A stretch of DNA of 64,000 nt, taken from positions 12,857 through 76,856 of the forward strand of contig JANMPU010000034.1 of assembly GCA_031369985.1 (NCBI GenBank), written 5' to 3'. Below, in pieces: positions 1,690-17,414 of the stretch. The position numbers and the translations under genes were made by a program. The stretch is from Sphingomonas sp. (lineage in GTDB: Bacteria > Pseudomonadota > Alphaproteobacteria > Sphingomonadales > Sphingomonadaceae). Each line of letters opens with the position of its first letter. Position 1 is the first letter of the stretch. Under the pieces are notes generated by a model. The model was not told where the DNA came from and did not search any database. It saw nothing but the letters and a program-made list of their open reading frames with translations.

Positions 1690-2275
1690 CGTTTAATCCC
1701 CAGCGCGTGGCGAGCGCATCAAATTGGACCGACAGGCTAGCGATAATCCGGCCCGAGGCGGTCATGATGTGGCAATCGGTCGGGCCAAGATCAGGGTTTT
1801 GGGTGATGCTCACATGAGTGAGTGCGGCGAGATGCGCGCGCAAATCACCGGCAAGTGCGGGCGCGACATCAATGGTCACGGGCGTTTCGGTATCAAGCCG
1901 AGCCAATGTGCGGTCAACAACGCGGCGCATTGTTTCGCTCTCTTCTAGTTCCCCAACAATCGCACGGGCGGCGGCGAAAGCTGCTTCGGCAATGTCGGAG
2001 CGACGCGTTTCGGCGTGCGCCTCAATGGCGGCGGCAAAATCGGCGAGACCCGCCGCAACGGCGTGGCGCGCTTCTGCTATTGCTTCGTCGAGACCTACGC
2101 GGTGACCGTTATCGCGGGCGATTTCGGCCTCGGCAAGAGCGCGGTCGCGGAGATGTTTTGTTTCGGCCAGCACTGCAACGGCATCAGCAAAGGCAGTTCG
2201 CTGATGCGCTTTAACGACGGGGCGGCTGCTGTCGAGTAAGGCACCGTCATCGGCGTAAGCGAGGTGGAAGCTCAC
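1676..2275 (-). CDS. sctL: T3SS stator SctL (YscL/HrpE/FliH-like)
   Basis: Start refined to GTG 2275 (GTGA overlap with the upstream stop), giving about 200 aa. Ala/Glu-rich N half and a FliH/YscL-like C terminus (TPVTIDVAPALAGDLRAHL...GPTDCHIMTASGRIIASLSVQFDAL). Lies immediately upstream of sctN. Confidence 0.7.
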   Translation of the reverse strand: MSFHLAYADDGALLDSSRPVVKAHQRTAFADAVAVLAETKHLRDRALAEAEIARDNGHRVGLDEAIAEARHAVAAGLADFAAAIEAHAETRRSDIAEAAFAAARAIVGELEESETMRRVVDRTLARLDTETPVTIDVAPALAGDLRAHLAALTHVSITQNPDLGPTDCHIMTASGRIIASLSVQFDALATRWGLNDADR

Positions 2276-2745
2276 GGGCGTTGCACCAGATCGAACGCGG
2301 TTTCGGCCAGCGTGCGGGCTTCGGTATCGTTGGCAGCATTGGGGAAGCGCATTGCGAACGGCGCGGGGAGGCCGCGATGCAGGATCGACCACCCTTCGGC
2401 AGCCAGCGTTTCGGGGGTGGGAAGCGCGTTGCATTCGTCCGCTTCGTGGACGGGCAAAGCCGCCACCGCATCAAACAAGTCTTCACCAACGACATCGGCC
2501 AGCGCCGCCAGCTTTTTCCCCGAAAGTTCGCGGTTGAGCGCACCTTTGTGCCGCAAAAGTCCCGCCGCCATCGCGACCGGAACCTGCGCATCATCAGCCA
2601 GCATCAGCCAACGCGGGACTGCGGCGAGGTCCGCGAAGTTTGGCCCTGCAACGCCTGCCATCCGGTTTGTAAACCGGCCTCCACGCGTGTCGGCCATGCC
2701 AAGCGCGTCGAGTTGCGCGGCACGGCGGGCAGTACGCTCGCTCAT
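2272..2745 (-). CDS. Putative T3SS sorting-platform protein SctK, assigned by position only
   Basis: 157 aa from ATG 2745 (ATGA overlap with the sctJ stop). No motif recognised. Occupies the sctJ-sctK-sctL slot seen in Ysc-type gene order. Confidence 0.4.
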   Translation of the reverse strand: MSERTARRAAQLDALGMADTRGGRFTNRMAGVAGPNFADLAAVPRWLMLADDAQVPVAMAAGLLRHKGALNRELSGKKLAALADVVGEDLFDAVAALPVHEADECNALPTPETLAAEGWSILHRGLPAPFAMRFPNAANDTEARTLAETAFDLVQRP

Positions 2746-3485
2746 CCCTTGGGTGTCAGCGATGCTGGTAAACCACTCCGCCGCCGCGCGCGCCACAGTG
2801 CTCGGCCTGCAATCAGCAGCAGCACTAGCGCGCCAATGCCCGCTGCGACGCGCGCCAACGTGCCCATCTCGATACTGCTCGATGCTGCGGCCGTCGCGGG
2901 CAATGCCTGCGCAGGCACCATGACGACCGAGACGCGGTCATAAGTCAGGCCATCAATACCATTCGTGACCAGCGCCTTGATCGCCCCTGTCTGGCTGCGC
3001 AGATCAAAGCCAGTGCGGTATTTGACGAATACCGACGCCGCTGATGGCTTGGCTTCGCGCGACAACGGATCGGCCTCGGGCATGGTCAGGTGGACGCGCG
3101 CCTGAACCACGCCATCAATCTCGCTGATTGTCCGGCTAAGCTCCTGACTGAGGCCGTAAATCAGCCGCGCGCGTTCCTCAAGCGGGGTCGACGTAAAGCC
3201 TTCTTTTTTGAACACCGTGCCGAGCGAGTCATAATTCTCGCTTGGCAAACCTTGCGCGCGCAGCGTTTCGACCGCGCGGGCAAAATCGTTAGAGTCGACG
3301 GCGATGCTCCAATTGTCTTTCTCGCCCGCGATTTTCGATGCTTTGATGCCGCTTTGCGACAGCACGGCAATCATCTCATTCGCGCTGGTCTCGGTCAGCT
3401 TGCCGTAAACTTCCTGCTGCCCACAGCCAGCGAGCAACAGCATAGCGGGCAAGGCCACCCAAGCGAGAACAGGCCGACCTATCAT
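2742..3485 (-). CDS. sctJ: T3SS inner-membrane ring lipoprotein SctJ (YscJ/HrcJ)
   Basis: Start refined to ATG 3485 (ATGA overlap with the sctI stop). Lipobox LLLAGCG, a YscJ-like EVYGKLTETSANEMIAVLSQSGIKASK segment, and a C-terminal TM helix (GIGALVLLLIAG). Confidence 0.9.
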   Translation of the reverse strand: MIGRPVLAWVALPAMLLLAGCGQQEVYGKLTETSANEMIAVLSQSGIKASKIAGEKDNWSIAVDSNDFARAVETLRAQGLPSENYDSLGTVFKKEGFTSTPLEERARLIYGLSQELSRTISEIDGVVQARVHLTMPEADPLSREAKPSAASVFVKYRTGFDLRSQTGAIKALVTNGIDGLTYDRVSVVMVPAQALPATAAASSSIEMGTLARVAAGIGALVLLLIAGRALWRARRRSGLPASLTPKG

Positions 3486-3895
3486 TGCTGCTTGAACAAT
3501 TGCTGGACGCCGTCCGAGCTGCGGTTGGCGATGTTCGAAGTCAGCTGCGCCTGAAACATGAATTCCTGGCATTTCATCGTCAGCTGGACGATCTCGCCGG
3601 GGGTTAGCTGCCCGCCGCTCGCTTCTGCCGTCGCTGCATATTCGGACACTGATTTGGCCTGAATATTGACCTGATCAAGCGCCCCGAACAGCCCTTTGAT
3701 TGGCGCCGGGACGCTACCCGTAGGCGTGAGAGCCTCAATCCCGCCGACGCGCGAAAGCGATTGGTGGAACCGTGCCTCAAGCTGTGGTGTGGGCGCGCCT
3801 GCACCACCTGCGGGGGCCAGTTCGACCACTCTTGCGCCCCCAATTTTGGCGCCCGACGATTGCGCGGCGACCGCGCTGACGGGATCGATTGCCAT
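3482..3895 (-). CDS. sctI: T3SS inner rod protein SctI (YscI/PrgJ-like)
   Basis: 137 aa. The C-terminal helix LTPGEIVQLTMKCQEFMFQAQLTSNIANRSSDGVQQLFK resembles the YscI/PrgJ C termini. Located between sctF and sctJ. Confidence 0.6.
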   Translation of the reverse strand: MAIDPVSAVAAQSSGAKIGGARVVELAPAGGAGAPTPQLEARFHQSLSRVGGIEALTPTGSVPAPIKGLFGALDQVNIQAKSVSEYAATAEASGGQLTPGEIVQLTMKCQEFMFQAQLTSNIANRSSDGVQQLFKQQ

Positions 3896-3897
3896 AT

Positions 3898-4200
3898 TCA
3901 GCCTTTCCGCGCCATTGTTTCAAGCGCTTTCGATACGCTGTCGAGCGAGGTGTGCGAGCTTTGCGAGAGGAAGCTCAGGCGCATTGATTCTGCGCTCAGC
4001 TTGGTAATGTCCGACGGTTTGTCGCCACCCTGTGACAGCTGCTCTGACTGTGTGACGATGACGTCGGCTTGCTTGTCGAGCGCTTTGCCCCACGCGCCGG
4101 CGAAGGCTTCGAACCAGTTTTTCGATTTGGTATCGAAATCGCCCATGCTCGGCGCGGCGGCGATGTTGCCCAGGGCGTTGTTTGAAATGGAATCGGTCAT
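3898..4200 (-). CDS. sctF: T3SS needle-family protein SctF (100 aa)
   Basis: Helix-loop-helix layout: helix WFEAFAGAWGKALDKQADVIV, loop GGDKPSD, then helix ...SLDSVSKALETMARKG. This resembles the MxiH/PrgI/YscF hairpin with its P-S/D-containing turn. Position is sctD-sctF-sctI. Confidence 0.6.
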   Translation of the reverse strand: MTDSISNNALGNIAAAPSMGDFDTKSKNWFEAFAGAWGKALDKQADVIVTQSEQLSQGGDKPSDITKLSAESMRLSFLSQSSHTSLDSVSKALETMARKG

Positions 4201-5435
4201 GAAGTCGTCCTTTCCTTAGTCTCACTGTTAATTGGTGTTGGTGATTGTGATGTCGTCGCGGGCGCCGGTGGGGTCGGTGCGCCCAGAACCAGTTCCTCGA
4301 CGCGTCCGTCGCGCTCGAAACTGGCACGGCCATTGCCGATGGCAATGATTTTGTGCCCCGTCGGCACTTGCGATCCAGCGAACCAGTGCGTGCCGTCGGC
4401 AGTCACAATGTAGCCGGGCGTGCCATCGACGAACGAGGCAAGGCCGAAGGCGGACCCTGAAAAGAAATATTGAAGGTCGCGGTCGCCGCGGCTGTTTTGC
4501 GTGGCGAACGCGACGCGGGTAATGCCGGGCAAGTCGCGACGGATGAGCTTGATTAACTCGTCCTGCCGGTCCGTGGGAAGGAATTCAGTCGTGACCAGCA
4601 AACTGTTGCCGCGCATCGGCTTGGCGTCGGCGTCGATCCCCTGTGCGCGCAACATGTCAGTTGCGGCGGCGGCCATGCCCTGCATCGTGTCGACGTCAAT
4701 GCTAGCGCCGCCAATGCGCGCGGCGACGAGGGTGCGGAGGCGGGCGAGTTCGGTGTCATCCTTGACCACGCCGGTGATGACTGGCCCTTGCCCCGTCGCG
4801 CCGTCGGATATGGTCAGGGCACCAAACCCTTGACCGGCGAGGATCGTTTTGTTGTTTTCAATGCCGTTAAACTGTCCGCCGATCCAGCGCGTCGCCGGGC
4901 CGCCAGCAATGGCGAGCAACAGGAGGCCACCCGCCAGCAAACCGTAGAGCGGCCAGTTATGATCACCTGCCATCGCCTCGCGCAACGGATACAGCCGAGT
5001 CGTCAGGCGTTCGACCAGCGCCGCTTGGGGCGCAGCAGCGGACAGTTCGGCCGAAGCAGGGGTAATCATTGTTGAAAGCCGCTCGACTTCGGCCCAACGA
5101 TCCGACTCGGCTTCTCCAATCGCAATTGTGAAGTTGCCAAGCGTCAACGGCACGAACGCGGGGAGGCTGGCTTCCTCGGCTGCCGCAACGGGCCGCCCCA
5201 ACAAGGCCACTTCGCCCGCGACAACGCGGATTGTCGCGATGTCGGCACCCAAATGAAGCTCAAGCGACAGCCCCCTTGTGGAGGCATCACGCAACACGAC
5301 ATCATGGTCGAACGCATGGCCGATGCGGATATATTTACCGAGGGGCAGGCGGTGTTCCGCGCCTTTCGACCGACCGGCCAGTACACGCAGGACCAAATGC
5401 CCGACCATCAGCGGTGACGGGAAGGGAGCGTTCAC
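4197..5435 (-). CDS. sctD: T3SS inner-membrane ring protein SctD (YscD/EscD-like, N-terminal FHA)
   Basis: 412 aa. FHA-like N terminus (LVLRVLAGRSKGAEHRLPLGKYIRIGHAFDHDVVLRD), a single TM helix (LYGLLAGGLLLLAIAGG), and a periplasmic C-terminal region. GTGA overlap with the sctC stop. Confidence 0.7.
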   Translation of the reverse strand: MNAPFPSPLMVGHLVLRVLAGRSKGAEHRLPLGKYIRIGHAFDHDVVLRDASTRGLSLELHLGADIATIRVVAGEVALLGRPVAAAEEASLPAFVPLTLGNFTIAIGEAESDRWAEVERLSTMITPASAELSAAAPQAALVERLTTRLYPLREAMAGDHNWPLYGLLAGGLLLLAIAGGPATRWIGGQFNGIENNKTILAGQGFGALTISDGATGQGPVITGVVKDDTELARLRTLVAARIGGASIDVDTMQGMAAAATDMLRAQGIDADAKPMRGNSLLVTTEFLPTDRQDELIKLIRRDLPGITRVAFATQNSRGDRDLQYFFSGSAFGLASFVDGTPGYIVTADGTHWFAGSQVPTGHKIIAIGNGRASFERDGRVEELVLGAPTPPAPATTSQSPTPINSETKERTTS

Positions 5436-7276
5436 CGCGAACCCCCCTCTTTATAGCGGCGGCTGCCGCCCCCCTGTAGCTGCTCGAGCGGGATGACCCG
5501 TGGCTGCTGTTGGGCGGATGTCGGTGTTGCGCTCTTGCCCTGTGAGAGAATGCGCGCCGTGATCAGGAACAGGCGTTCGAAATGCGATCCGCCTTTGCTC
5601 CGTTTCCGCGCCAGCTGGCCAATAACAGGAATGTCGCCCAGGACTGGCACTTTCGATTTATAGTCATATTCGGTGTCGATCGTCATGCCGCCAATCATCA
5701 GGCTTTCGCCCTGTTTGACGACGGCATTGGTGTTGATGCTCGATTGCTTCACTGCCGGGATGCCATCGACAATGAGACCGCTGGGGGAACCGTCCACGAT
5801 GTCGATGGCAAGACGTGTGCGCAGCTCTCCGCCGTCATAAAGCACCGACGGGTTGACGCGCATGATAAGGCCCGCCGTGATCGGGAACAGGTCCACCTGC
5901 CGGTCACCCGCGACGCGCGCATAATAAGTGACCTGATTGTTGAAAATGACCGGGATGTTGTTGAGCGTACTCATCCTCGGGCGCGAGATGACGCGTAACG
6001 CACCCGATTTCTCCAGCGCGGTGATCCGCACCGCAAACCCCGCAAGCGCACCCGTCAATATGTTCGCACCGATGTTGCCGGCCGAAAACCCTTGCGTCGG
6101 ATTGCTCTGTTGCCCACCGAATAGCGCATTGAGATCGCCGTTCTGAAGGCTGAAATTGATGCCGAGTTCCTTGAGTCGCGTGACATCAAGTTCAAGGATT
6201 GTCGCTTCAATTTCAATCCCGCGCGGTTCGACGTCGAGGCCGCGAATGATGTCTTCATAAACCGACATTGATTCAGGGCGGTCGCGGACAATGACGGCGT
6301 TGTTGGTTGAATCGACTTCAACACGCGGTCCATTCACGTCGCGGATGCTGACGGCGCGCGCTTGGGGGCTAGCGCCTCCCACCTGTGCATCGTCATAATC
6401 CTGTTGCGACGCATCCGGTGGCACCGATCCCAAGCCGCGTCCCAGCAGGCGAGGCAGCGATTGCCGCGCGATATCGAAATTGCCGCTGGTCGATACCGTT
6501 TCCGAAGGACGGCCATCGCCCATGATGCCGCGCAGGATAGAGCCAACGCCAGGCGTTACGTCGGTGCGGTCAAAGCTCTTTTGGATCGTGTCATCGGCGC
6601 GCGCGTAGCGGAGATAGAAGATACGGACTTCGTAAGGATTGCGCGAGCTGGCTTGCGCGATGACTTGCGAACGGACGGTTTGCAAAGCTGCCGGTCCGGC
6701 AAGCATCGGCGAAATGACAGTCGCTGACGCTGGCGTTGTATTGCGTACGACTGGCACGGTTGCAGTGACGACAGGCGGCGCATTGACTGCCGCCGTCCGG
6801 ACCGATCCCGCCAGTTTTTCAACGCGGTCGAGGAAGGTCGGAACCCCTGTTGCGCTTACAGATCCGGTCGATGCGACGAGGATGTTTGATGCATCGGCAA
6901 TCTGCATCCGCTTCGCATCATTCACGACGGTGGCGGGGGATGCGGTTGCGAAGCTGCGCGTCTGGATTTCGCTGGCGGCGTAAACGCGGACAACAGCGCC
7001 GTCATAATAGGCAACCAGATTGAAAGCGCGCGACAATTGCATCCAAATTTCGGCAGGGGTCGCTGTGAAGGTGCCGTTCATTTTGGCGTTGACGGCGGAG
7101 CTGACTTTGACGCGCAGGCCCGCTTGCCCAAACAAATCGTTCACGACGTTCGCCACCGACTGGCTGCGCGCAGTGATGGTGATCGTTTTAGCGGGGAAGG
7201 GCGGCGCAGCGGCCATCACCGCGACCGGCGCGAAAATCAAGACCGTACAAAAGAATAGGCGTACCAAACGGGTCAC
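5432..7276 (-). CDS. sctC: T3SS outer-membrane secretin SctC
   Basis: 614 aa with a signal peptide. C-terminal secretin domain (VPVLGDIPVIGQLARKRSKGGSHFERLFLITARIL) and N-domains typical of YscC/HrcC. Confidence 0.9.
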   Translation of the reverse strand: MTRLVRLFFCTVLIFAPVAVMAAAPPFPAKTITITARSQSVANVVNDLFGQAGLRVKVSSAVNAKMNGTFTATPAEIWMQLSRAFNLVAYYDGAVVRVYAASEIQTRSFATASPATVVNDAKRMQIADASNILVASTGSVSATGVPTFLDRVEKLAGSVRTAAVNAPPVVTATVPVVRNTTPASATVISPMLAGPAALQTVRSQVIAQASSRNPYEVRIFYLRYARADDTIQKSFDRTDVTPGVGSILRGIMGDGRPSETVSTSGNFDIARQSLPRLLGRGLGSVPPDASQQDYDDAQVGGASPQARAVSIRDVNGPRVEVDSTNNAVIVRDRPESMSVYEDIIRGLDVEPRGIEIEATILELDVTRLKELGINFSLQNGDLNALFGGQQSNPTQGFSAGNIGANILTGALAGFAVRITALEKSGALRVISRPRMSTLNNIPVIFNNQVTYYARVAGDRQVDLFPITAGLIMRVNPSVLYDGGELRTRLAIDIVDGSPSGLIVDGIPAVKQSSINTNAVVKQGESLMIGGMTIDTEYDYKSKVPVLGDIPVIGQLARKRSKGGSHFERLFLITARILSQGKSATPTSAQQQPRVIPLEQLQGGGSRRYKEGGSR

Positions 7277-9240
7277 TCGGCAAACTCCCTTTGCACCTGG
7301 TCGGTCAGGCTCTCGGGCGCGCTGTTAAGCTCGCCAACAATATCAAGCGGAACCGACGGGTTAAGTTCGTTGAAACTGATGACTGGGACGTCGAACAAGT
7401 CGGCGGCAATCAAAAGGCGAAGCGGACGACGCAAATCCTGCGCGGTCAAAATCGCGCGTGCGCCGCTAGCTTCGACTTCTTCGGACAGAAGCGCGATCAG
7501 CGCGCGCATCTGGTGCGGGTTGATGGCGAGGCGCATCTGTCCATCGACCGGGGTCAGGGTGTGGCGAATGATTTCTTCGAGATTGCTGCCGACCATCAAC
7601 ACGCGCAGGCGGCCATTTTCGCAAATCGGCGCGATCAAATGACGGCGCATCATGACGCGCGCACGTTCGGCCATCGGAATGGCTTCGCGTTCATACTGGC
7701 CAATGTCGCCAATTGCTTCGATGGCATCGCGGAAATTGCGCAAGGGCACTGATTCATCGACCAGCAGCCGCAGCGTTTCGGCGATTTTTCCCGTGGGCAC
7801 GGCACGCACAGCTTCTTTCACGACTTCGGGATGTGTTTCGCCCAGCGCGTTCAGCTGGTCAGTGACCTCTTGCAGGCCAAGGAAGAGCCCCAGGTTGCGA
7901 CCCAGAAGGTGCTCGACATAATTGGAAAGGCGCGTCGCAATATCGTCGCCTTCGATGACGCCACTGCCGATGGGCGCGTCATGCGCCAACAGGGACCATC
8001 CATTGGCAGGAATGTTACCCGTTTCGTCAGCAACAATGCGAAGCGCAGGGACGGCAACGCCACTGCGTTCCTGAAGAGATGCGATACCTTTGCGTACCTG
8101 TTCGGTCAGAGCGGCAAACTGTAGCGACGTCGCGGACATGCCGACCGTCAGGCGAATGGGATCGAGCGAGGGCAGGGCGGCCGACTGTATCGTTGTCTCG
8201 CCCGGAATTGCCGTCTGGTCAGCAACCGCAAAACCGGTTCTTTCGCGCACCCAGCGGCCCGATGTCGGATGGTTGATCACTCCGGCTCCGATCAGGACAG
8301 CAGCGATGGCGAGGAAAACGAATGTCGGAAAGCCCGGGACAAGGCCCAGCAGGACGGCGAGACCGCCAGCAATCATCAAAACGTGAGGCTTCCCGGAAAT
8401 CTGGCGTGCGATTGCCGGACCCAAATCGCGGTCGCGCGCTTCGTCGGTGGTGCGCGTGACAAGCAAGCCAGCAGCCATCGCAGAGAACAGCGCGGGGATT
8501 TGCGCGACCAGACCTTCGCCGATGGTCAAGATCGAAAAGGTTGCGGCCGCCTGACTAACCGACATGCCATGGTGCATCATCCCCGTCGCAAGACCGCCAA
8601 GCAGACAGATCAGGACGATGACGATGGACGCAATCGCATCGCCCTTCACAAACTTCATGGCCCCGTCGAGGCTGCCGTGGAGCTTGCTTTCCATTTCCAA
8701 AGTGTTGCGCTTTTCGCGGGCCTCGTCCTTGGTCAAGATACCCGAACGAAGGTCGCTGTCGATCGACAATTGCTTGCCGGGCATGGCGTCGAGGCTGAAG
8801 CGTGCGGCGACTTCCGCCACACGTTCAGCGCCTTTGGCGACCACAATGAACTGCACCACAGTGATGATCAGAAACACGACGAGGCCGACGACGATGTTGC
8901 CGCCTGCAACCATTTCACCAAATTGTTGGATGATCATGCCGCCCTCTGCGGTGCCGAGGATCATCCGCGTCGTCGATACGCTGATCGCGAGCCGGAACAG
9001 CGTGGAGATGAGCAGCACTGTGGGGAAAGTCGAGAAATCAAGCGGCTTCACAACGTAGACGGCACTGAGCAGCAGCAAGATGCCGATTGTCATGTTGATA
9101 GCGATCAACACGTCGAGCACGAACGGCGGCATCGGGATGATCATGAGCATGACCACTGCCACGATCACGCCGACCAGCATGACGTCGGCACCACGCACCG
9201 GCAGCGCGCGGAACTTTGCGAAGGGAAGCGTCCGTGCCAA
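7273..9240 (-). CDS. sctV: T3SS export gate protein SctV (LcrD/HrcV/FlhA family)
   Basis: 655 aa. Multi-TM N half with an FHIPEP-like segment (KGAERVAEVAARFSLDAMPGKQLSIDSDL) and a cytoplasmic C-terminal domain. Confidence 0.95.
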   Translation of the reverse strand: MARTLPFAKFRALPVRGADVMLVGVIVAVVMLMIIPMPPFVLDVLIAINMTIGILLLLSAVYVVKPLDFSTFPTVLLISTLFRLAISVSTTRMILGTAEGGMIIQQFGEMVAGGNIVVGLVVFLIITVVQFIVVAKGAERVAEVAARFSLDAMPGKQLSIDSDLRSGILTKDEAREKRNTLEMESKLHGSLDGAMKFVKGDAIASIVIVLICLLGGLATGMMHHGMSVSQAAATFSILTIGEGLVAQIPALFSAMAAGLLVTRTTDEARDRDLGPAIARQISGKPHVLMIAGGLAVLLGLVPGFPTFVFLAIAAVLIGAGVINHPTSGRWVRERTGFAVADQTAIPGETTIQSAALPSLDPIRLTVGMSATSLQFAALTEQVRKGIASLQERSGVAVPALRIVADETGNIPANGWSLLAHDAPIGSGVIEGDDIATRLSNYVEHLLGRNLGLFLGLQEVTDQLNALGETHPEVVKEAVRAVPTGKIAETLRLLVDESVPLRNFRDAIEAIGDIGQYEREAIPMAERARVMMRRHLIAPICENGRLRVLMVGSNLEEIIRHTLTPVDGQMRLAINPHQMRALIALLSEEVEASGARAILTAQDLRRPLRLLIAADLFDVPVISFNELNPSVPLDIVGELNSAPESLTDQVQREFAE

Positions 9241-9242
9241 AA

Positions 9243-10064
9243 TCAGCGGCCCGCCAGATTCTGTTCGGACAGCAAGCGCTGATAATTGCCCAGCACTTTC
9301 TGCACATATTGCTGCGTTTCGGCATAAGGCGGAATGCGGTTGCCATATTTTGCCACTGCGCCTTCGCCCGCGTTATAAGCGGCAAGTGCTAGCGGAAAAT
9401 CATTGTATCGCGCGTGCAGTCGCCGAAGCAGCCGCGCGCCGCCATCGACGTTGCTTTCCGGGTTTGCAATTGAAGCAGCGCCAATGCCGAGCATCCGTGC
9501 GGTCGCGGGCATCAATTGCATCAAACCGCGTGCCCCTGCGTGGCTGGTTGCCTGAACTTTGTAAGATGACTCTTGTTTGATGACCGCGTGCAGCAATAGT
9601 GGATCAATCCGGTGCCGTTCGGCGACACGCGCAATCATATCGTCATAAGGCGTCGAATAACTGATCGGGCGCATCGACAAGATGGCGCCCGAACCGGGAT
9701 CACCCGCTCCGCTTACCGCCTCTGAATAAGTGACTGGCACAAATTCTTGCGACTTGGGCACGATGCGAATGACGTTGCCGCCGTCGATCCCCGCCATGAT
9801 GCGCCGCGCCCGGGGCTCATCGTCGGGCGTGATGCGAATGTCGCGCGGTTCGGTGTAGTCGCGAACGCTTGCCGGGGCGACGATCACTTTGTCCGCCGTG
9901 CAGTTGTCCAGCATTTGAAAGCCCGCCAACGAACTCGATCCCGCCACTCGGAGCTGCCCTTCAATCGGGCAGGGCGGCATGGGAAATGGCTTGTCTTTGG
10001 CGCTCGCAGCTGCCGCATAGAAACTGGTAACGGCCAGCAGTCCGATCGTTACGCCACCCTTCAT
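9243..10064 (-). CDS. T3SS-associated lytic transglycosylase (SLT domain; IagB/IpgF/HpaH-like role)
   Basis: SLT motifs IKQESSYKVQATSHAGARGLMQLMPATA and AAYNAGEGAV. Likely start is ATG 10064, which gives the signal peptide MKGGVTIGLLAVTSFYAAAASA. It is the first gene of the minus operon. Confidence 0.85.
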   Translation of the reverse strand: MKGGVTIGLLAVTSFYAAAASAKDKPFPMPPCPIEGQLRVAGSSSLAGFQMLDNCTADKVIVAPASVRDYTEPRDIRITPDDEPRARRIMAGIDGGNVIRIVPKSQEFVPVTYSEAVSGAGDPGSGAILSMRPISYSTPYDDMIARVAERHRIDPLLLHAVIKQESSYKVQATSHAGARGLMQLMPATARMLGIGAASIANPESNVDGGARLLRRLHARYNDFPLALAAYNAGEGAVAKYGNRIPPYAETQQYVQKVLGNYQRLLSEQNLAGR

Positions 10065-10124
10065 CTGCACCGCTCCTGTTGCGCGCCGGAAAAATATCCG
10101 CCGCCCCCGAAATCGATGCCCCAC

Positions 10125-10636: not shown

Positions 10637-11803
10637 ATGGCCGACAAAAATGACGGTGCCGACAAGAGCGAGTTGCCGACGCCCAAAAAATTGCGTGATG
10701 CACGCAAAAAAGGCGATATTGCTAAATCAAAGGATCTTGGCGCGGGTCTGCTAACGGCGGCATGGCTTATTTTGTTTGCGTTTGTCGCCGGATTTGCTGC
10801 GACCGAATTGGCTCGGCTGGCGACTGATACGCTGGCAGTTGCAACGACGATGCCGTTTGAAAAGGCTGCTGCGACCATCGGCTGGGACGCACTCATCACG
10901 CTTATGCGTATTTCGCTGATGACGTTGGTGCCCGTCGCGGTCATTGCGACGTTTGCCGAATTTGTTCAGGTCGGCCCAATGTTCACGACCGAGAAAATGA
11001 AATTCGGTCTCGATAAGCTCAACCCGATGGAGGGGCTGAAGCGGATGTTTGGCAAAGACGGTTTGTTTGAACTGGTCAAGACGTTGGTCAAAGTCGGGTT
11101 GATCATGATCATTGCTTATTTTGTCATGCGTGCCGCGATCAGCGAGTCAGGGCAGCTTATCCGTCTTGCCAGCTGGTCGCCGGTTGCCGACACCGGCCCC
11201 GCAGCGGCGTCGGCTTCGCTCGATCTGACATATCGGCTGACGATCAAACTCTTTGCGATGGTGGTCGGCGTCTTCCTGTTTGTCGCAGTCGCGGACTGGG
11301 TTTATTCCAAACATAGTTTTATCAAGAAAATGATGATGAGCCGTCGCGACATCAAGCAAGAATATAAGGACGACGAAGGCGACCCGATGGTCAAATCGCA
11401 GCGCCGCGAAATGCACCAGGAATGGGCAAACCAGAATACGTTGGGCGCAACACGCGGATCGGCGGCATTGCTGGTCAACCCGACCCATATCGCGATCGCG
11501 CTTGATTATGACGAGGACAAAACGCCGGTGCCCGTGATCGCCGCGAAAGGCGCAGGCGAACTCGCCGCCGCCATGCGTGCCGAAGCGGTCGCGGCGGGTA
11601 TCCCGATCATCCGTAATATCGCGACCGCGCGGACATTGTGGGCGCGCGGCGAGATTGGCGAAATCGTGCCACAGGATATGTTCGACGCGATTGCTGCGAT
11701 CATATTATGGGCCAAAAAGGCACGGGGCGGTGACGCTCCGATGGATCATGATATGGATGCGGCGCGGCCGTTGCTGGCGCGTCTCGAAACGGCATCGACC
11801 TAA
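10637..11803 (+). CDS. sctU: T3SS export apparatus switch protein SctU (YscU/HrcU/FlhB family)
   Basis: 388 aa. N terminus KSELPTPKKLRDARKKGDIAKSKDL, four TM segments, and the NPTH autocleavage site (LLVNPTHIAIAL). Confidence 0.95.
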   Translation: MADKNDGADKSELPTPKKLRDARKKGDIAKSKDLGAGLLTAAWLILFAFVAGFAATELARLATDTLAVATTMPFEKAAATIGWDALITLMRISLMTLVPVAVIATFAEFVQVGPMFTTEKMKFGLDKLNPMEGLKRMFGKDGLFELVKTLVKVGLIMIIAYFVMRAAISESGQLIRLASWSPVADTGPAAASASLDLTYRLTIKLFAMVVGVFLFVAVADWVYSKHSFIKKMMMSRRDIKQEYKDDEGDPMVKSQRREMHQEWANQNTLGATRGSAALLVNPTHIAIALDYDEDKTPVPVIAAKGAGELAAAMRAEAVAAGIPIIRNIATARTLWARGEIGEIVPQDMFDAIAAIILWAKKARGGDAPMDHDMDAARPLLARLETAST

Positions 11804-11815
11804 CAGGGAAAATCT

Positions 11816-12136
11816 ATGGGTATCGGAACGGTCCTCTCCTCAATTCTGGCAGTGGTGATTGCGCTGGCCTTTGTGCTGGGGCTGGCTTGGGGCGTCATTT
11901 GGCTGCTCAAAAAATTGCAAGACCGGCAATTGGGGACAAGTGAAGCGGCAGCCGAGGGGCACAATATCCGCTTTGTCCGATCGATGCCGTTGGGCCAACG
12001 TGAGCGGGTCGCGATGATTGAAGTGGGCGGCGAAATAATGCTGCTCGGCGTGACGGCAGGAGCGATCACTTTGCTCGCGCGCTGGCCTGAAGGGCAGACA
12101 CCCGACTTCCCGCCGCGACCCGGCGCACCTGCATGA
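11816..12136 (+). CDS. FliO-like small membrane protein inside the injectisome export-gate operon
   Basis: 106 aa with an N-terminal TM helix (VLSSILAVVIALAFVLGLAWGVIWLL). The core IRFVRSMPLGQRERVAMIEVGGEIMLLGVTAGAITLL closely parallels my recollection of E. coli FliO (SLGARERVVVVDVEDARLVLGVTAGQINLL). ATGA overlap with sctQ. Confidence 0.7.
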   Translation: MGIGTVLSSILAVVIALAFVLGLAWGVIWLLKKLQDRQLGTSEAAAEGHNIRFVRSMPLGQRERVAMIEVGGEIMLLGVTAGAITLLARWPEGQTPDFPPRPGAPA

Positions 12137-13047
12137 ACGCGCATGTCGGCATTGATGGACTGACCGCATTGCGCCGGATTGATCCCGAGGACGCGGCGCT
12201 GGGCGCGGCAATTTGCGTGTTGCTGCGCGCGGGTGGGACGACGGTGCGATTGGTGGACGCGCCCGAGAATGGCTTGTTCATTACCGAAGGGGGCGTTGCG
12301 TTTGCGATCCAATCGATAAACGGGAATGCGCCAATCGTATCGACGGCCCGCGTGACCGAAGCGGCGGCGGCGCTTGATGCGATTGATCCCATGCTGGTCG
12401 ATATCGAAGCAGCGCTTGGCCTCTCGCTGGATGCGACGGGCATGGGCAGCGTAGGCTCTGCCGCGATTGGCATCAACGTGAGGCGCGAAGATTTTAGCCT
12501 GACTCTGGTCATTCCTCGTGATCACACCCGCCGCGCCGACTGGGTCGCATTAGCGGAAACCCTGCCGCCCTCAACGCCACACATGCCCGTCATTGTCGCG
12601 CTTTTAATGACCGGCCCACGCTTGACAGTGGCCGAAGCAAGCGACCTTTCGTCGGGTGATCTCCTGCTCGTTCCGCAATCCGCTATGGCAACGCTTCAGA
12701 CCGCGCATCTGCCCGCAATGACGGGTGCGTTCGACTTTTCCACCGGCCAGTTTTCGCTTGGCCAGACCGGAGACTTTATGCCCGACGATACGCTCGCCTC
12801 AGATTTCATGGTTCCGCTGACCATTAAGTTCCCCGACCGGATGACAAGCGCAGGCAGCCTGTCTGCGTTGGTGCCGGGGACGACGCTGCCACTGGGGCCG
12901 TTGACCGAAGGAATACCTGTCGAACTCCGCGTCGCGGATCGACTTTTGGCGTGCGGTGAACTCGTTCAATTGGGTGACCGCTTTGCGGTCCTGATCGAGG
13001 ATCGCGCTGATATCAGCGACCCAGTTACAACGGCGGAGGACGACTGA
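12133..13047 (+). CDS. sctQ: T3SS cytoplasmic ring/sorting platform protein SctQ (SpoA domain)
   Basis: 304 aa. C-terminal SpoA/FliN-like domain (VPLTIKFPDRMTSAGSLSALVPGTTLPLGP...PVELRVADRLLACGELVQLGDRFAVLI). Confidence 0.8.
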   Translation: MNAHVGIDGLTALRRIDPEDAALGAAICVLLRAGGTTVRLVDAPENGLFITEGGVAFAIQSINGNAPIVSTARVTEAAAALDAIDPMLVDIEAALGLSLDATGMGSVGSAAIGINVRREDFSLTLVIPRDHTRRADWVALAETLPPSTPHMPVIVALLMTGPRLTVAEASDLSSGDLLLVPQSAMATLQTAHLPAMTGAFDFSTGQFSLGQTGDFMPDDTLASDFMVPLTIKFPDRMTSAGSLSALVPGTTLPLGPLTEGIPVELRVADRLLACGELVQLGDRFAVLIEDRADISDPVTTAEDD

Positions 13048-13742
13048 TGGACCTCTCGCAATTCACCCCCGGTTCGGCGCTCATCACCGTCGTCCTGCTC
13101 GCGCTCGCGCCGTTCTTCGCCGTCATGGTCACCAGCTTTACCAAGATCGCGGTGGTGCTCAGCCTCGTCCGCAACGCGCTCGGCCTGCAACAAGTGCCGC
13201 CGAACATCGTGCTCAATGGCCTCGCACTCATCCTCTCGGTGTTTGTCATGTATCCGACCATCGAAAAGATGCAAGCCGCCGCCGCGATTGAGGGGCCATC
13301 GACCGCGACAATGGCGGGTGATGCACGGCCCGGCACAAATCCCCTGTCCAGTACCGGCGACATTTTCGGCACCGCTGACCGCGCGAAGGAGCCACTCCGC
13401 GCCTTTTTGATGAAGCATAGCGATCCCCGCGAACGCGCTTTCTTCCTCCGCACTCAAGCGCGCATCGGCGATCCGACAGCTGTCGCCAGCCTGAAGGAAA
13501 GCGACTTCGTCATCGTCATCCCCGCCTTCGTCGTGAAGGAATTGAAGATGGCGTTTCAGATCGGTTTTCTCATCTTTCTTCCCTTCCTCGTTATCGACAT
13601 GGTGATCTCGAACATATTGCTGGCGATGGGCATGATGATGCTCTCCCCGGTGACGATATCGTTGCCGTTCAAGATATTGTTGTTTGTTCTTGTCGACGGC
13701 TGGGTGAAGCTGACGCACGGGTTGGTACTCAGTTATGTCTAG
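13047..13742 (+). CDS. sctR: T3SS export apparatus protein SctR (FliP family)
   Basis: 231 aa. FliP-like TM pattern with IPAFVVKELKMAFQIGFLIFLPFLVIDMVISNILLAMGMMMLSP. Confidence 0.95.
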   Translation: MDLSQFTPGSALITVVLLALAPFFAVMVTSFTKIAVVLSLVRNALGLQQVPPNIVLNGLALILSVFVMYPTIEKMQAAAAIEGPSTATMAGDARPGTNPLSSTGDIFGTADRAKEPLRAFLMKHSDPRERAFFLRTQARIGDPTAVASLKESDFVIVIPAFVVKELKMAFQIGFLIFLPFLVIDMVISNILLAMGMMMLSPVTISLPFKILLFVLVDGWVKLTHGLVLSYV

Positions 13743-14001
13743 CGACCTTGTCGGCCTTACCACGCAGGCCTTGTGGCTTGTCCTGCTGCTGTCCGCGCCG
13801 CCGATCATTGCGGCGTCGGTTGTCGGTTTGCTGGTCGCGATCATTCAGGCCGCGACGCAGCTTCAGGAACAGACGCTGCAATATACGCTCAAATTCTTTG
13901 CCATTGTGGTCAGCATTTTCGTGACGTCCAGCTTGATGGCCGGCGCGCTCTATTCCTATACCGACGCAATTTTCTCCGGCTTTCCCGGGATGGTTAAATG
14001 A
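13735..14001 (+). CDS. sctS: T3SS export apparatus protein SctS (FliQ family)
   Basis: 88 aa with two TM helices. FliQ-like LLLSAPPIIAASVVGLLVAIIQAATQLQEQTL. Confidence 0.9.
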   Translation: MSSDLVGLTTQALWLVLLLSAPPIIAASVVGLLVAIIQAATQLQEQTLQYTLKFFAIVVSIFVTSSLMAGALYSYTDAIFSGFPGMVK

Positions 14002-14831
14002 ACGAAGTCGGGGGCGTGCCTTTGTTCGTTACGATCCCCTGGCTCGACCAGTTGCTGACCGTCGGCACCGCGTCGGCACGTTTTGCGTTCGCCTTTGTCT
14101 TTGTACCTTTGTTCTCGACCGAAGTCATGCCGCCGACGGTGCGCAACAGTATCATCGTGACCTTCGGCCTCGTCGCCCTATCGATGCAGCCCAATTTTGC
14201 GCCCGCCAATTTGTCCGCCATGGCATGGGCAACCATGCTGCTCAAGGAAGCGGCAGCTGGCGGCATCATTGGCTTGTTTTTTGGCACGATGCTCTGGGCA
14301 ATGGCGGCGGCGGGCGAGATCATTGACACCAAAGTCGGCGCGACGATTGGCCAGTTGGTCGATCCCTTGAGCGGCGTCACCACATCACTGACCGGCATCC
14401 TGCTCGGTCGGTTCGCGCAAGTGGTGTTCGTCAGTGCGGGCGGGCTGACATTGCTCGTCGGCGCAGTGATGGGAAGCTATGCGGTTTGGCCGATGGGACC
14501 GGGCGGGGTCACGCTCAACCTGCAAGCCGTGCAATATTTCGAAGGCGAGTTCGGGCGGCTGTTTACGCTCGCGTTCCTGTTTGCCGCGCCCGTCATCACA
14601 GTGCTTTATGTCATTGATGCGTCAATGGGTTTTCTCAATCGCTTTGCCCAGCAATTCAATGTGTTCGCGCTTGCGTTGCCGATCAAGTCGGTCGCTGCGG
14701 CGCTTATTTTGATCATGTGCCTGCCGCTGCTTGCCGATGCCGTAATCGGTGATCTGGGCAGCCGTGAGGGGATATCGGGCGGGATCCTAGATCGGGTCGG
14801 GACAGTGACACCCCCGGGTAGCCAGCCATGA
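13998..14831 (+). CDS. sctT: T3SS export apparatus protein SctT (FliR family)
   Basis: 277 aa, polytopic, in the FliR position after sctS. ATGA overlaps at both ends. Confidence 0.9.
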   Translation: MNEVGGVPLFVTIPWLDQLLTVGTASARFAFAFVFVPLFSTEVMPPTVRNSIIVTFGLVALSMQPNFAPANLSAMAWATMLLKEAAAGGIIGLFFGTMLWAMAAAGEIIDTKVGATIGQLVDPLSGVTTSLTGILLGRFAQVVFVSAGGLTLLVGAVMGSYAVWPMGPGGVTLNLQAVQYFEGEFGRLFTLAFLFAAPVITVLYVIDASMGFLNRFAQQFNVFALALPIKSVAAALILIMCLPLLADAVIGDLGSREGISGGILDRVGTVTPPGSQP

Positions 14832-15277
14832 GCGCGACCGACGATCCCCGGTTGTTTGGCCTCGCGACCGGCGCGACCACGGCGGCATCCACGCGCTCTG
14901 TGTCGCAACCGACCGGTGCGCTCCCCGGTGAAGGGGTCACCGATCCCGCCGAGCTCGCGCGCCTCGTCAATATGCTGCGCGCGTCCGAAGTGGCCAGCGC
15001 CCCGCAACGCCGCGATATCGTAATTGGCGAATTTAGCGTATCGGCGCCGCGTGTGCCTGATCATCACATCGAAACGCTCCAGCATTTGACGCGCAACGAA
15101 GCTGCGGTCCTTCGTTTCCTTGGTTGGGGACGGGCGAATGCGGACATAGCAACATTGCTCGACATGACCGAAGCGACCGTGCGCACGCACATGGCCAATG
15201 CGATCCGCAAACTGCAACTGGACGGCGTGCGCGAGTTGAACAGCCTTGCAGGGTTGCTGTTTATGTCAACGGACTAA
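14828..15277 (+). CDS. LuxR/GerE-type HTH transcriptional regulator, last gene of the sctU operon
   Basis: 149 aa. C-terminal GerE HTH (LTRNEAAVLRFLGWGRANADIATLLDMTEATVRTHMANAIRKLQL). No receiver or autoinducer domain was recognised in the N half. Confidence 0.8.
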   Translation: MSATDDPRLFGLATGATTAASTRSVSQPTGALPGEGVTDPAELARLVNMLRASEVASAPQRRDIVIGEFSVSAPRVPDHHIETLQHLTRNEAAVLRFLGWGRANADIATLLDMTEATVRTHMANAIRKLQLDGVRELNSLAGLLFMSTD

Positions 15278-15480
15278 CCTCGCCGTCCTATTGCTTTGCC
15301 GATGAGGAAAACTCCGCCGACGCCAACGCCACCGGCGGCGGCCATCAGGAGGTAGGGCGGGCTGTTGTCATTGGTCACGGGCGCGTTTCCCGTGTTGGCG
15401 CCGGCGAGCCGGGTATCGCCCTTGCCCGCCACGGCCCCCGTTTTCCGCGCAGGCACAAAGCCTTCGTCGGTGAGCGTCAT
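15274..15480 (-). repeat. Left arm of a 207-bp inverted repeat (202/207 identical to 18935-19141)
   Basis: My base-by-base comparison of the reverse complement with 18935-19141 found 5 mismatches. Identity drops sharply upstream of ATGACGCTCACC. Confidence 0.85.
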
Positions 15481-16281
15481 CGCATCGAGATCAAGACCCG
15501 ATGCCTTCGCACCTTTGCGTACCGCGGCTCCCAATTGCCGCATCATGTTGGGATCGTCTTTGTACACATCGACTGACGCGGAGATCAGCATCGCTTGCAC
15601 CATCATGGCTTCGGCCATTTCCTGTTTGGTGGCGTCGGTCGCGGCGGCGAATTCGGACGTAGCTGCAAGCGCGCTGGCCGATTGGCGTTTCACTGCTTGC
15701 ATCGTCGCGCGGCTTGGGTCGCTGGTATCGCCATTGGCGGCTTGCCACGCCTGAACCCAATAAACCGTGTAGGCATCAGCGACATTGTCCGTGCGCAGGC
15801 CATAGGGCTGGAGGTCGCGACCGAGCGCAACGATAGGGTCTGTCGATGCAAATAGCTGTGCCATCTGTGCCGAACCAGCGGGATCAGAGGCGCGCGATTT
15901 AGCAACGAAACTGGCGAGGTTAGCTTTTCGCAATATGAGCGAAGGCGCAAATTTTAGCCCACGTTCAGTTGCCGCGCTCGCCGCCATGCTTGGCCTTGTT
16001 GAGCTTGTGAATAACTGCGGCGCAAATTGTCGCATTGGCAGGGATGAGGCGGAACATTGCCCCGAAGCTTCGCGTCGAAGCAGTTCAGCCTTTTCCAGAT
16101 CGTTGCTATACGCGCGACCGCAGATTTGCGATCCGCCGCCACTCGCTTGCATGCCCATGGCCATCATACCCGGGCCATTCACGATGGCACCATTAAATGC
16201 TGGCATCATTGGCATTTGGGACGACGCCGGGATTGCTACCGTGAGAGCAGCGAGGAATGAGGTAGACTTAAGAATATGCAC
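15274..16281 (-). CDS. Signal-peptide protein with a C-terminal membrane anchor (paralogue A, unknown function)
   Basis: Start refined to GTG 16281 (GGAGG 5 nt upstream). Signal peptide HILKSTSFLAALTVAIPASS; core NVADAYTVYWVQAW...AVKRQSASALAAT; C-terminal [29 protein letters not shown]. Paralogue of 18218-19141. Confidence 0.7.
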   Translation of the reverse strand: MHILKSTSFLAALTVAIPASSQMPMMPAFNGAIVNGPGMMAMGMQASGGGSQICGRAYSNDLEKAELLRREASGQCSASSLPMRQFAPQLFTSSTRPSMAASAATERGLKFAPSLILRKANLASFVAKSRASDPAGSAQMAQLFASTDPIVALGRDLQPYGLRTDNVADAYTVYWVQAWQAANGDTSDPSRATMQAVKRQSASALAATSEFAAATDATKQEMAEAMMVQAMLISASVDVYKDDPNMMRQLGAAVRKGAKASGLDLDAMTLTDEGFVPARKTGAVAGKGDTRLAGANTGNAPVTNDNSPPYLLMAAAGGVGVGGVFLIGKAIGRRG

Positions 16282-16295
16282 TGTTGCCTCCAACG

Positions 16296-16325
16296 AAAAA
16301 GGAGCGCCCCTTGCGGGACGCTCCC
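16296..16325 (-). terminator. Rho-independent terminator after extended-SctF gene A
   Basis: Minus strand reads GGGAGCGTCCCGCAAGGGGCGCTCC followed by TTTTT. Confidence 0.6.
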
Positions 16326-16351
16326 ATAGTTTCTGCCAAATGGCAACTGCA

Positions 16352-17023
16352 TTAGCCTTTGCGGGCGATTGTTGACGATGCTTCGCCGATGGACTTGAGG
16401 GTATTGGCCAAGGCCTGTGAAACGATGCTCAATTCCTGACCAAGAGCCTGCATCTCGCCAGTCACCTTACCATATTTGGACTGACCTTCGGCGTTGAAAC
16501 TACCATCCTTTTTCAGTGCGCCATTCTCACCCAAATTGCCCAATTCGACGCCTTTTTTAGCCATCAAATTCATCTTATCGTCCATAATCTTGCCGAGAGC
16601 ACGAGCGATCTTCATCAGCACGCTGCCACCTTCATCGCCCTCAGCGTCCTCGGTAGAGCTACCCGCACGACGCATTTGCCCTTCAAGGATAGCCCGCATA
16701 CCGTCTCGAGCGGTGTCAACGGCGCGTGAGGCCTGACCCATCTGCGCTGGTGAGAAATTGAACGCACGTCCAAGCTGGTCAAGAGCAGCACGGCCCGTGT
16801 CGGGGCCACCAGCGCTGCCTGTTGCAGCCGAAAACGCTTCTTGCGCCATGCTAATAACTGCTGGAGGAAGTCCGAGTTTTTGACCAATCTGCATAATCAC
16901 CTCTTTGGCGACCGCAGTGAGAACCATCTTTGCAGCGATTGAAGCCCAACCAGCTGGTCCCATCGCGAGCTGCATCAGCGTGGCCGGGTTAATGAGTGAT
17001 TTGAACAATCCACCGATATTCAT
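16352..17023 (-). CDS. N-terminally extended SctF-family (needle/filament- or harpin-like) protein A; candidate T3SS substrate
   Basis: 223 aa, no Cys, Gly/Ala-rich centre, AAGGAG RBS. The C-terminal ~100 aa align by eye with the cluster's SctF (IARALGKIMDDKMNLM vs FAGAWGKALDKQADVI; TLKSIGEASSTIARKG vs SLDSVSKALETMARKG). The hydrophobic N domain is shared with paralogue B. Confidence 0.6.
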   Translation of the reverse strand: MNIGGLFKSLINPATLMQLAMGPAGWASIAAKMVLTAVAKEVIMQIGQKLGLPPAVISMAQEAFSAATGSAGGPDTGRAALDQLGRAFNFSPAQMGQASRAVDTARDGMRAILEGQMRRAGSSTEDAEGDEGGSVLMKIARALGKIMDDKMNLMAKKGVELGNLGENGALKKDGSFNAEGQSKYGKVTGEMQALGQELSIVSQALANTLKSIGEASSTIARKG

Positions 17024-17043
17024 GACTAATCTCCTTCGTCGAA

Positions 17044-17118
17044 AAACTGTCGGGGTGGCCGGAAGGACCGCCCTACATTCATTGTTCTGGCAGAAGGAAT
17101 TGAGTCGCGAACTCCACG
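17044..17118 (-). promoter_or_regulatory. Conserved promoter/leader block upstream of gene A
   Basis: In gene orientation: CGTGGAGTTCGCGACTCAA, then TTCTGcCAGAA, then AGGGCGGTCCTTCCGGCCACCCCGACAGTTT, ending 20 nt before the ATG. The same three blocks occur upstream of gene B. Confidence 0.5.
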
Positions 17119-17150
17119 AATCGTTTAGTTTACCTAAACGATTCGTTTAG
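17118..17150. promoter_or_regulatory. Palindromic operator-like element built from three TCGTTTAG half-sites
   Basis: GAATCGTTTAG-TTTAC-CTAAACGATTC is an 11-bp inverted repeat. It overlaps the 17-bp perfect palindrome CTAAACGATTCGTTTAG (17134-17150). A related GAATCGTTTA occurs at 17297 on the gene B side. Confidence 0.4.
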
Positions 17151-17159
17151 TTTTGTGCC

Positions 17160-17275
17160 GATCCGCGCTCAAATCGTCTTGCTGAACTCGTTTCAGCATC
17201 CATCGCGGCACGCAACCGACGGTGTTCGTTGGAAAATGGACCCTGAAACAAGTTCAGGGCGACGCTCCTAGTGTG
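17160..17275. repeat. REP/MITE-like intergenic element with two hairpins
   Basis: Hairpins TGCTGAA-ctcgt-TTCAGCA (17180-17198) and CCCTGAA-acaag-TTCAGGG (17241-17259). A further CCCTGAA-tcttcg-TTCAGGG hairpin lies at 46984-47003. Confidence 0.4.
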
Positions 17276-17321
17276 ACAGCAACGTCCTAAACTATTGAAT
17301 CGTTTATTCAAACCAAAGGCT

Positions 17322-17395
17322 CGTGGAGTTCGCGACTCAAGACCTTCTGTCAGAAAGATGTCCGAGGGCGGTCCTTCCGGCCACCCCGACAGTTT
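17322..17395 (+). promoter_or_regulatory. Conserved promoter/leader block upstream of gene B
   Basis: CGTGGAGTTCGCGACTCAA (17322-17340), TTCTGtCAGAA (17345-17355), and AGGGCGGTCCTTCCGGCCACCCCGACAGTTT (17365-17395), which ends 19 nt before the ATG. Confidence 0.5.
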
Positions 17396-17414
17396 CAATA
17401 GGAAGGAATGGATC

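Follow-up and report, generated by a model that had tools for sequence, protein, structure and literature searches.

A FliO-family protein as a standing component of a secretin-bearing type III secretion system family of Sphingomonas and related bacteria

The secretion cluster and its FliO homologue

The window, that is, the whole 64,000-nucleotide stretch of Sphingomonas sp. [quoted passage not shown] The genes are arranged in two divergent operons. The one on the minus strand comprises sctN, sctL, a gene in the sctK position, sctJ, two genes in the needle/rod position, an sctD-like gene, sctC, sctV and a lytic transglycosylase gene (SLT), and the one on the plus strand consists of sctU, fliO, sctQ, sctR, sctS, sctT and the gene of a LuxR-type regulator. 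The individual features and their best matches are the following:

370..2796, minus strand: sctK-position gene (174 aa), sctL (FliH family, FliH E = 7.7e-6) and the sctN ATPase (PF00006, T3SS_ATPase_C)
2742..3572, minus strand: sctJ, lipoprotein ring (PF01514, E = 4e-32)
3482..4200, minus strand: pair of small genes (100 and 137 aa) at the needle/inner-rod position (weak T3SS_basalb_I match, E = 0.0024)
4197..5435, minus strand: sctD-like inner-membrane ring protein (weak matches to Yop-YscD_cpl, E = 1e-5, and Y4YQ_C, E = 9e-5)
5432..7276, minus strand: sctC secretin (PF00263, PF03958; TIGR02516 type_III_yscC, 318 bits, cut-off 238)
7273..9240, minus strand: sctV (PF00771, 566 bits; TIGR01399 hrcV 605 bits vs FlhA 495 bits)
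9243..10124, minus strand: lytic transglycosylase (SLT), first gene of the divergent operon (PF01464, E = 2.6e-26)
10637..11803, plus strand: sctU, FlhB/YscU family switch protein and upstream neighbour of fliO (PF01312, E = 3.6e-97; TIGR01404 SctU 343 bits vs FlhB 286 bits)
11816..12136, plus strand: fliO, FliO-family protein of 106 aa (PF04347, 59.5 bits; TIGR03500, 67.9 bits)
12133..13047, plus strand: sctQ with a FliN-like C-terminal domain (PF01052, E = 3.6e-10; TIGR02551 SctQ)
13047..13742, plus strand: sctR, FliP family pore subunit (PF00813, 234 bits; TIGR01102 yscR 238.5 bits vs fliP 193 bits)
13735..14001, plus strand: sctS (PF01313; TIGR01403 93.4 bits vs fliQ 74.5 bits)
13998..14831, plus strand: sctT (PF01311; TIGR01401 204.6 bits vs fliR 109.6 bits)
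14828..15277, plus strand: LuxR/GerE-type regulator, its start overlapping the sctT stop (PF00196, E = 3e-10)
15274..19141: module of two genes (DUF6683 protein and a 223/284-aa protein; PF20388), present as two inverted copies

The presence of the sctC secretin marks the system as a secretin-bearing non-flagellar T3SS, and SctV, U, R, S, T, N, L, Q and J, which with SctC make up the core set of such systems, all gave significant HMM matches. For each of SctR, S, T, U and V the injectisome model outscored its flagellar counterpart, while the match of SctJ is limited to the shared YscJ_FliF family. No flagellar Pfam families (FliG, rod, hook, Mot) appeared among the ORFs scanned in the 64-kb window, and housekeeping and catabolic genes were seen between 19 and 64 kb, with no flagellar genes. 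The genomic context of fliO is therefore not flagellar, with SctC, SctD and SctJ in the same cluster, and such a context no longer defines FliO since the survey of Andrianova et al. (2025; PMC12403147). An earlier note on this DNA had claimed that a FliO homologue is embedded in an injectisome export-gate operon, and a cluster with SctC, SctD, SctJ, SctV, SctN and SctL bears this out. Regarding the minor genes, the true start of sctJ is probably internal (~247 aa; the gene is called as 247 aa in the related locus L053), and the orthologues of the genes in the needle/inner-rod position have a weak precomputed match to T3SS_needle_F.

The fliO ORF starts with an ATG at 11816 and ends with a TGA at 12134-12136, encoding 106 aa. 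The identification of this ORF as a FliO homologue, made by eye in the earlier note together with the suggestion of a search with the Pfam FliO model, was confirmed by scores above the curated cut-offs of two models: PF04347 at E = 3.4e-16 (59.5 bits, gathering score 22) and the NCBIfam equivalog TIGR03500 at E = 6e-19 (67.9 bits, cut-off 55.25). BLASTP also reproduced the by-eye alignment of the core with FliO of E. coli K-12 (b1947), in which LGQRERVAMIEVGGEIMLLGVTAGAITLL, residues 59-87 of the window protein, pairs with LGARERVVVVDVEDARLVLGVTAGQINLL; identity was 37% over 63 residues, with a pairwise E = 2e-4. The protein has one hydrophobic segment, ILAVVIALAFVLGLAWGVIWLL, followed by KK..R, and from this positively charged cluster and the positive-inside rule alone the C-terminus is predicted to be cytoplasmic. 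An AlphaFold2 model built on 46 family sequences (mean pLDDT 87) has a single long N-terminal helix at residues 3-38 (pLDDT >90), in agreement with the one N-terminal transmembrane (TM) helix noted before, and four strands at residues 51-58, 64-70, 73-79 and 84-91. The predicted fold matches the conserved FliO core as described in section 8 of PMC12403147, namely one TM helix and a small cytoplasmic antiparallel beta-sheet. Searches of the PDB by sequence and by fold for a solved FliO returned noise only.

The flagellar FliO of Salmonella and E. coli shares with the window protein its HMM family, its bitopic layout with a cytoplasmic beta domain and its location in an operon with the FliP/Q/R homologues. 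It differs in that the window protein is encoded in an injectisome operon and that no N-terminal extension precedes its TM helix. The genes also follow another order, sctU-fliO-sctQ-sctR in the window as opposed to fliN-fliO-fliP in flagellar operons. The AMIN-FliO of C. jejuni has the FliO core in common with the window protein and sets a precedent for a FliO that acts on the FlhB/SctU homologue rather than on FliP, in keeping with the conserved sctU-fliO pair described below. However, it is flagellar and possesses a periplasmic AMIN domain, needed for the effect on FlhB, that the window FliO does not have.

The junctions around the gene are tight. The stop of fliO and the start of sctQ share an ATGA overlap at 12133-12136, and the genes fliO-sctQ-sctR-sctS-sctT follow one another with overlapping stop and start codons, so that fliO is one gene away from sctR, with sctQ in between, and does not directly adjoin it. 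Upstream, between sctU and fliO, there are 12 nt that contain a Shine-Dalgarno-like motif, AGGGAA. Thus the ATGA coupling that had been proposed for the whole sctU-X-sctQRST arrangement holds at the fliO/sctQ junction and fails at the sctU/fliO one. In 28 of 28 loci the stop of fliO either overlaps the start of sctQ or directly adjoins it, as ATGA or TGATG, and the start codon, the Shine-Dalgarno-like motif and the coupled stop/start of fliO are conserved among them.

Conservation of fliO and its neighbourhood

Orthologues were scanned using one genome per species. This gave 26 Sphingomonas loci with a fliO orthologue, among them those of S. trueperi, S. pokkalii, S. azotifigens, S. pituitosa, S. 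xinjiangensis and S. deserti, and the cluster layout was the same in all 26. Across these loci FliO is 70-81% identical, compared with 42-58% for SctQ, and is at least as well conserved as SctC and SctD. Comparison of the window copy with 27 orthologues gave dN/dS values of 0.06-0.2, with dS saturated, and the median over all pairs was 0.21; fliO is under purifying selection in the related Sphingomonadales loci examined. In the alignment of 46 FliO-family sequences 19 columns are invariant and 24 nearly so. Residues I68 and L87 of the window protein, each at least 90% conserved in the family, align with what we take to be V72 and L91 of Salmonella FliO. The V72G and L91R mutants of Salmonella FliO are non-functional (PMC5542435).

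In order to look beyond Sphingomonas, the family profile was searched against 1.84 billion representative proteins, yielding 5012 FliO-family matches at E <= 1e-3 and 146 at E <= 1e-10. The genomic context was then checked for 12 of the nearest non-redundant and progressively more distant relatives (profile E ~1e-49 to 1e-15), coming from Sphingorhabdus arenilitoris, an Erythrobacter MAG, S. agrestis, an alphaproteobacterial MAG, Pacificimonas pallii, Azohydromonas aeria, a Rhizobacter MAG and five metagenomic contigs. All 12 lay in the same type of T3SS cluster, with SLT-sctV-sctC-sctD(Y4YQ_C) divergent from sctU-fliO, and usually with sctQRST, the LuxR gene and the DUF6683 genes as well. The closest relatives belong to the Sphingomonadales (Sphingomonas, Sphingorhabdus, Erythrobacter, Pacificimonas) and the Burkholderiales (Azohydromonas, Rhizobacter).

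None of the related loci has lost the sctU-fliO pair, and its two members show an overlap or a tight coupling in L044, L046, L047, L050, L051 and L052. The pair is retained even where sctQRST does not adjoin it, as in L046 (Azohydromonas aeria), L049 (Rhizobacter MAG), L051 and L052. In these four loci sctU-fliO is followed by needle-like and DUF6683 genes instead of sctQRST, and either the export-gate genes must be located elsewhere or the systems must be incomplete. The sole exception in orientation is Pacificimonas pallii (L048 7790-11390), where fliO is inverted relative to sctU. There the 3' end of fliO overlaps that of sctU by ~68 nt, phospholipase-like and ankyrin-repeat genes precede fliO on the same strand, and sctQRST is found 3 kb away on the other strand.

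Since the 12 context checks and the 26 Sphingomonas loci all agree, FliO is a standing component of one T3SS family of Alpha- and Betaproteobacteria, which comprises Sphingomonadales, an unclassified alphaproteobacterial MAG and some Burkholderiales. FliO has long been cited as the single export-apparatus protein that separates flagella from injectisomes, and the earlier view of the field was that it is absent from the latter (PMC5542435). Its presence in an injectisome family bears on the nucleation of the SctR5T1 core and on the evolution of injectisomes from flagella, a point that was published in 2025. Andrianova et al. (PNAS, August 2025, PMC12403147) reported FliO homologues within non-flagellar T3SS operons, naming Myxococcota, Sphingomonadales, Caulobacterales, Burkholderiales and Xanthomonadales, with M. 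xanthus WP_020477618.1 and Luteimonas WP_024891899.1 among the examples. The FliO in the injectisome operon of the window is thus real and already known for the same order, because that paper names the Sphingomonadales; both cases concern a Pfam FliO encoded within a non-flagellar T3SS operon of this order. The novelty that had been attached to a FliO in an injectisome does not survive, the gene being routine in the family (26 of 26 Sphingomonas loci and 12 of 12 distant ones) as well as published.

Some differences can be pointed out. In the accessible portion of its main text PMC12403147 lists occurrences and does not deal with cluster architecture, sctU-fliO pairing or phylogenetic position; some of the Myxococcota FliOs carry LysM or AMIN domains, whereas the window FliO is a bare core. 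Our literature searches on the T3SS family of Sphingomonas turned up no specific account of its architecture or its phylogenetic position. The residual interest of the locus is modest and lies in the FliO-bearing clusters being one coherent family with a fixed sctU-fliO pair. The window adds a clean and complete example of a FliO-bearing injectisome, and FliO is fixed in one syntenic T3SS family of culturable, plant-associated Sphingomonas species. These carriers offer a tractable system in which to ask if FliO is required by a virulence-type export gate and, if so, on which subunit it acts.

Place of the system among injectisomes and origin of its FliO

As references we used nine injectisome loci: Ysc, Mxi-Spa, LEE, Hrp1, Hrp2, Rhc, Mycetohabitans, Burkholderia SPI-1-like and a Paracoccus plasmid T3SS. 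The Vibrio aquimaris plasmid locus, which provided a SctV match only, was left out. BLASTP of the window FliO against the reference-locus ORFs gave no match beyond the family at E <= 1e-3, a search that was too insensitive, given that BLASTP with this query missed even E. coli FliO. We therefore used an HMM of the window's FliO family, which recovers the flagellar FliO of E. coli at E = 1e-12, and over the nine sampled reference loci it detected no significant FliO. The classical injectisomes (Ysc, Inv-Mxi-Spa, Ssa-Esc (LEE), Hrp1, Hrp2 and Rhc) have in common with the window the core SctC, D, J, V, U, R, S, T, N, L and Q, but differ from it in the SLT-sctV-sctC-sctD layout, the LuxR regulator and the DUF6683 proteins.

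The core proteins of the window are distant from all references. SctV is just 37-44% identical to any plasmid-borne SctV, and concatenated SctN, V, U, R, S and T share 34-39% identity with every injectisome family and 32-34% with flagellar systems. A first neighbour-joining (NJ) tree placed the family on a single long branch without resolution. A second one, with six divergent family members added, three flagellar outgroups and clades counted directly over 200 bootstraps, recovered the window's family as monophyletic in 200/200 and the non-flagellar systems as monophyletic against the three flagellar outgroups, also in 200/200; the family was sister to the nine other injectisomes, i.e. basal, in 108/200 (54%). 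We also regrafted the family by maximum likelihood (ML) on the fixed NJ backbone with our own script (BLOSUM62-derived exchangeabilities, four-category gamma with alpha 1.34), using 18 taxa and 1512 columns with Myxococcota and Chlamydiae left out. Four attachment points were indistinguishable (delta lnL <= 1.6): sister to Hrp2+Mycetohabitans+Paracoccus+Rhc, sister to the Hrp2 group, basal, and sister to the SPI-1/LEE/Ysc/Hrp1 group. The basal attachment below all sampled injectisomes obtained a RELL of 0.23. Attachment inside any sampled classical family costs at least 29 lnL units, and any flagellar branch is at least 76 lnL units worse (RELL 0). The T3SS of the window is thus outside all sampled classical families and constitutes a separate family on the deep injectisome backbone. 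The "deep-branching" lineage suggested in the earlier note would correspond to the basal attachment, which fits as well as the three others and no better. The suggestion that the system might mark a "flagellum-proximal" lineage is not supported, given that the export proteins favour the injectisome HMMs and the cost of any flagellar branch is this high.

How FliO came to be part of this family can be read in more than one way. It might be a secondary acquisition from a proteobacterial flagellar operon into an injectisome that had no FliO, and not an ancestral retention or the marker of a deep lineage. In the profile search no clear gap in score separates the T3SS-type FliOs from typical, flagellar-looking beta- and gammaproteobacterial FliOs with N-terminal extensions, and the ML analysis permits a position as sister to the FliO-less Hrp2/Rhc-type systems, which has the best lnL and a combined RELL of ~0.5. 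Yet the order fliO-sctQ-sctR is not the flagellar fliN-fliO-fliP, and SctR is of the injectisome type, which means that no fliOP block was captured. Besides, no member of the clade lacks FliO, at a divergence of its core proteins down to 45-50% identity, and FliO is found also in the T3SSs of Myxococcota, which are basal in PMC3459982. Because these basal systems carry FliO too, retention is at least as parsimonious as re-acquisition, and we give the acquisition a minority chance. The boldest reading takes the FliO-bearing clusters as one coherent injectisome family, as yet without a separate description, that would be basal to all secretin-bearing injectisomes, with FliO ancestral together with that of the Myxococcota and lost once on the classical stem, and with SctU rather than SctR as its conserved partner; we consider it doubtful as a whole.

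Possible role of FliO and neighbouring genes

[quoted passage not shown] By its family, predicted fold, operon position, conservation, selection and restriction to this T3SS family, the window FliO is a fixed, co-translated component of the T3SS. It probably acts as a transient scaffold or chaperone, an activity that, like its most likely client SctR (possibly along with SctU), we infer by analogy. The idea of the earlier note, a lineage that kept FliO-assisted SctR assembly, is a reasonable one in this light. In such a model the inner-membrane FliO, behaving like its flagellar counterpart, would protect a newly inserted export-gate subunit from proteolysis, would promote the assembly of the SctR5-SctT core and would then leave the finished machine. 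The Salmonella precedent would make SctR the most likely client, with SctU possibly served as well. The choice of SctR is a guess from that precedent, because the client of FliO differs between species, being FliP in Salmonella, FlhA in H. pylori and FlhB in C. jejuni (PMC12403147, section 10). Counting against SctR are the position of sctQ between fliO and sctR and the several loci in which sctQRST is not adjacent while sctU always adjoins fliO. In addition, FliO may be dispensable or otherwise employed in this T3SS, since classical injectisomes assemble SctR5T1 without it.

SctU is a serious alternative client because the sctU-fliO pair is invariant and often overlapping. FliO would then mainly stabilise or position SctU, the FlhB homologue, and not SctR. 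Besides the invariance of the pair in the family, this is favoured by the overlap or tight coupling of the two genes in the six loci listed above and by the persistence of the pair in the Azohydromonas, Rhizobacter, L051 and L052 loci without adjacent sctQRST, and it has a parallel in C. jejuni, where the loss of FliO cuts FlhB by ~40% and leaves FliP and FlhA unchanged (PMC12403147, section 10). However, the effect in C. jejuni, as described there, requires the periplasmic AMIN domain, absent from the 106-aa window protein; the adjacency may reflect inherited operon order alone, and fliO of Pacificimonas is inverted relative to sctU. We regard SctU as the main client as rather unlikely. A quite different reading would make the ORF a decaying or functionless FliO-like remnant, along the lines that the protein is short and that classical injectisomes work without FliO (PMC5542435). 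The low dN/dS (0.06-0.2, at saturated dS), the 19 invariant and 24 nearly invariant columns across 46 sequences, the conserved start codon, Shine-Dalgarno-like motif and coupled stop/start, and the presence of fliO in all loci examined leave this reading effectively refuted and extremely improbable.

Several observations concern the neighbouring genes. The SLT gene (9243-10124) is directly upstream of sctV (7273-9240); an SLT-flhA adjacency is seen also in alphaproteobacterial flagellar clusters, on plasmids of Sulfitobacter and Azospirillum (L040 19076-21959; L041 19022-21956), and the best NCBIfam match of the SLT is a flagellar-assembly lytic transglycosylase, at a score under the cut-off. 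The Y4YQ_C domain is named for a protein of the Rhizobium NGR234 T3SS cluster. Its match in the SctD-like protein, weak here and stronger in the orthologues, may point to a relation with Rhc-type systems, on which the core-protein tree is neutral. The LuxR/GerE-type gene at 14828-15277 keeps its place in nearly every related cluster and probably encodes a transcription factor dedicated to the cluster.

The T3SS cluster ends at ~19.2 kb. Beyond it, between 19200 and 30000, there are ordinary chromosomal genes that resemble nth, dapB, sirtuin, era, rnc, lepB, pgi, D-aminoacylase and glutathione reductase. The G+C content is 54-63% in the cluster and 57-61% outside, and this comparison gave no compositional sign of a recent transfer of the T3SS cluster.

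On the other side, contigs with an identical SctN (L053) indicate that the cluster extends to the left beyond position 1 of the window. In L053 (5301-11444) a 149-aa and a 173-aa gene occupy the SctO and SctP positions downstream of sctN, followed by genes for DUF1521, pentapeptide-repeat and phospholipase-like/Lipase_3 proteins. The DUF1521, pentapeptide-repeat and phospholipase-like proteins are plausible candidates for T3SS effectors. DUF1521 occurs also in the rhizobial effector NopE1.

The inverted modules at 15274-19141 encode DUF6683 paralogues of 339 and 312 aa and partner proteins of 223 and 284 aa, with identities of 68% between the former and 37% between the latter. An alignment of the 100-aa needle-position protein with the C-terminus of the 223-aa protein, made to examine a shared end, revealed no similarity. 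The module adjoins the T3SS in nearly all related loci, and because it accompanies the system so regularly its proteins may be secreted or translocon-type components. The last ~38 residues of the two DUF6683 paralogues (NAPVT...GRRG) are identical and the final ~70 have just three differences, a near-identity that suggests gene conversion.
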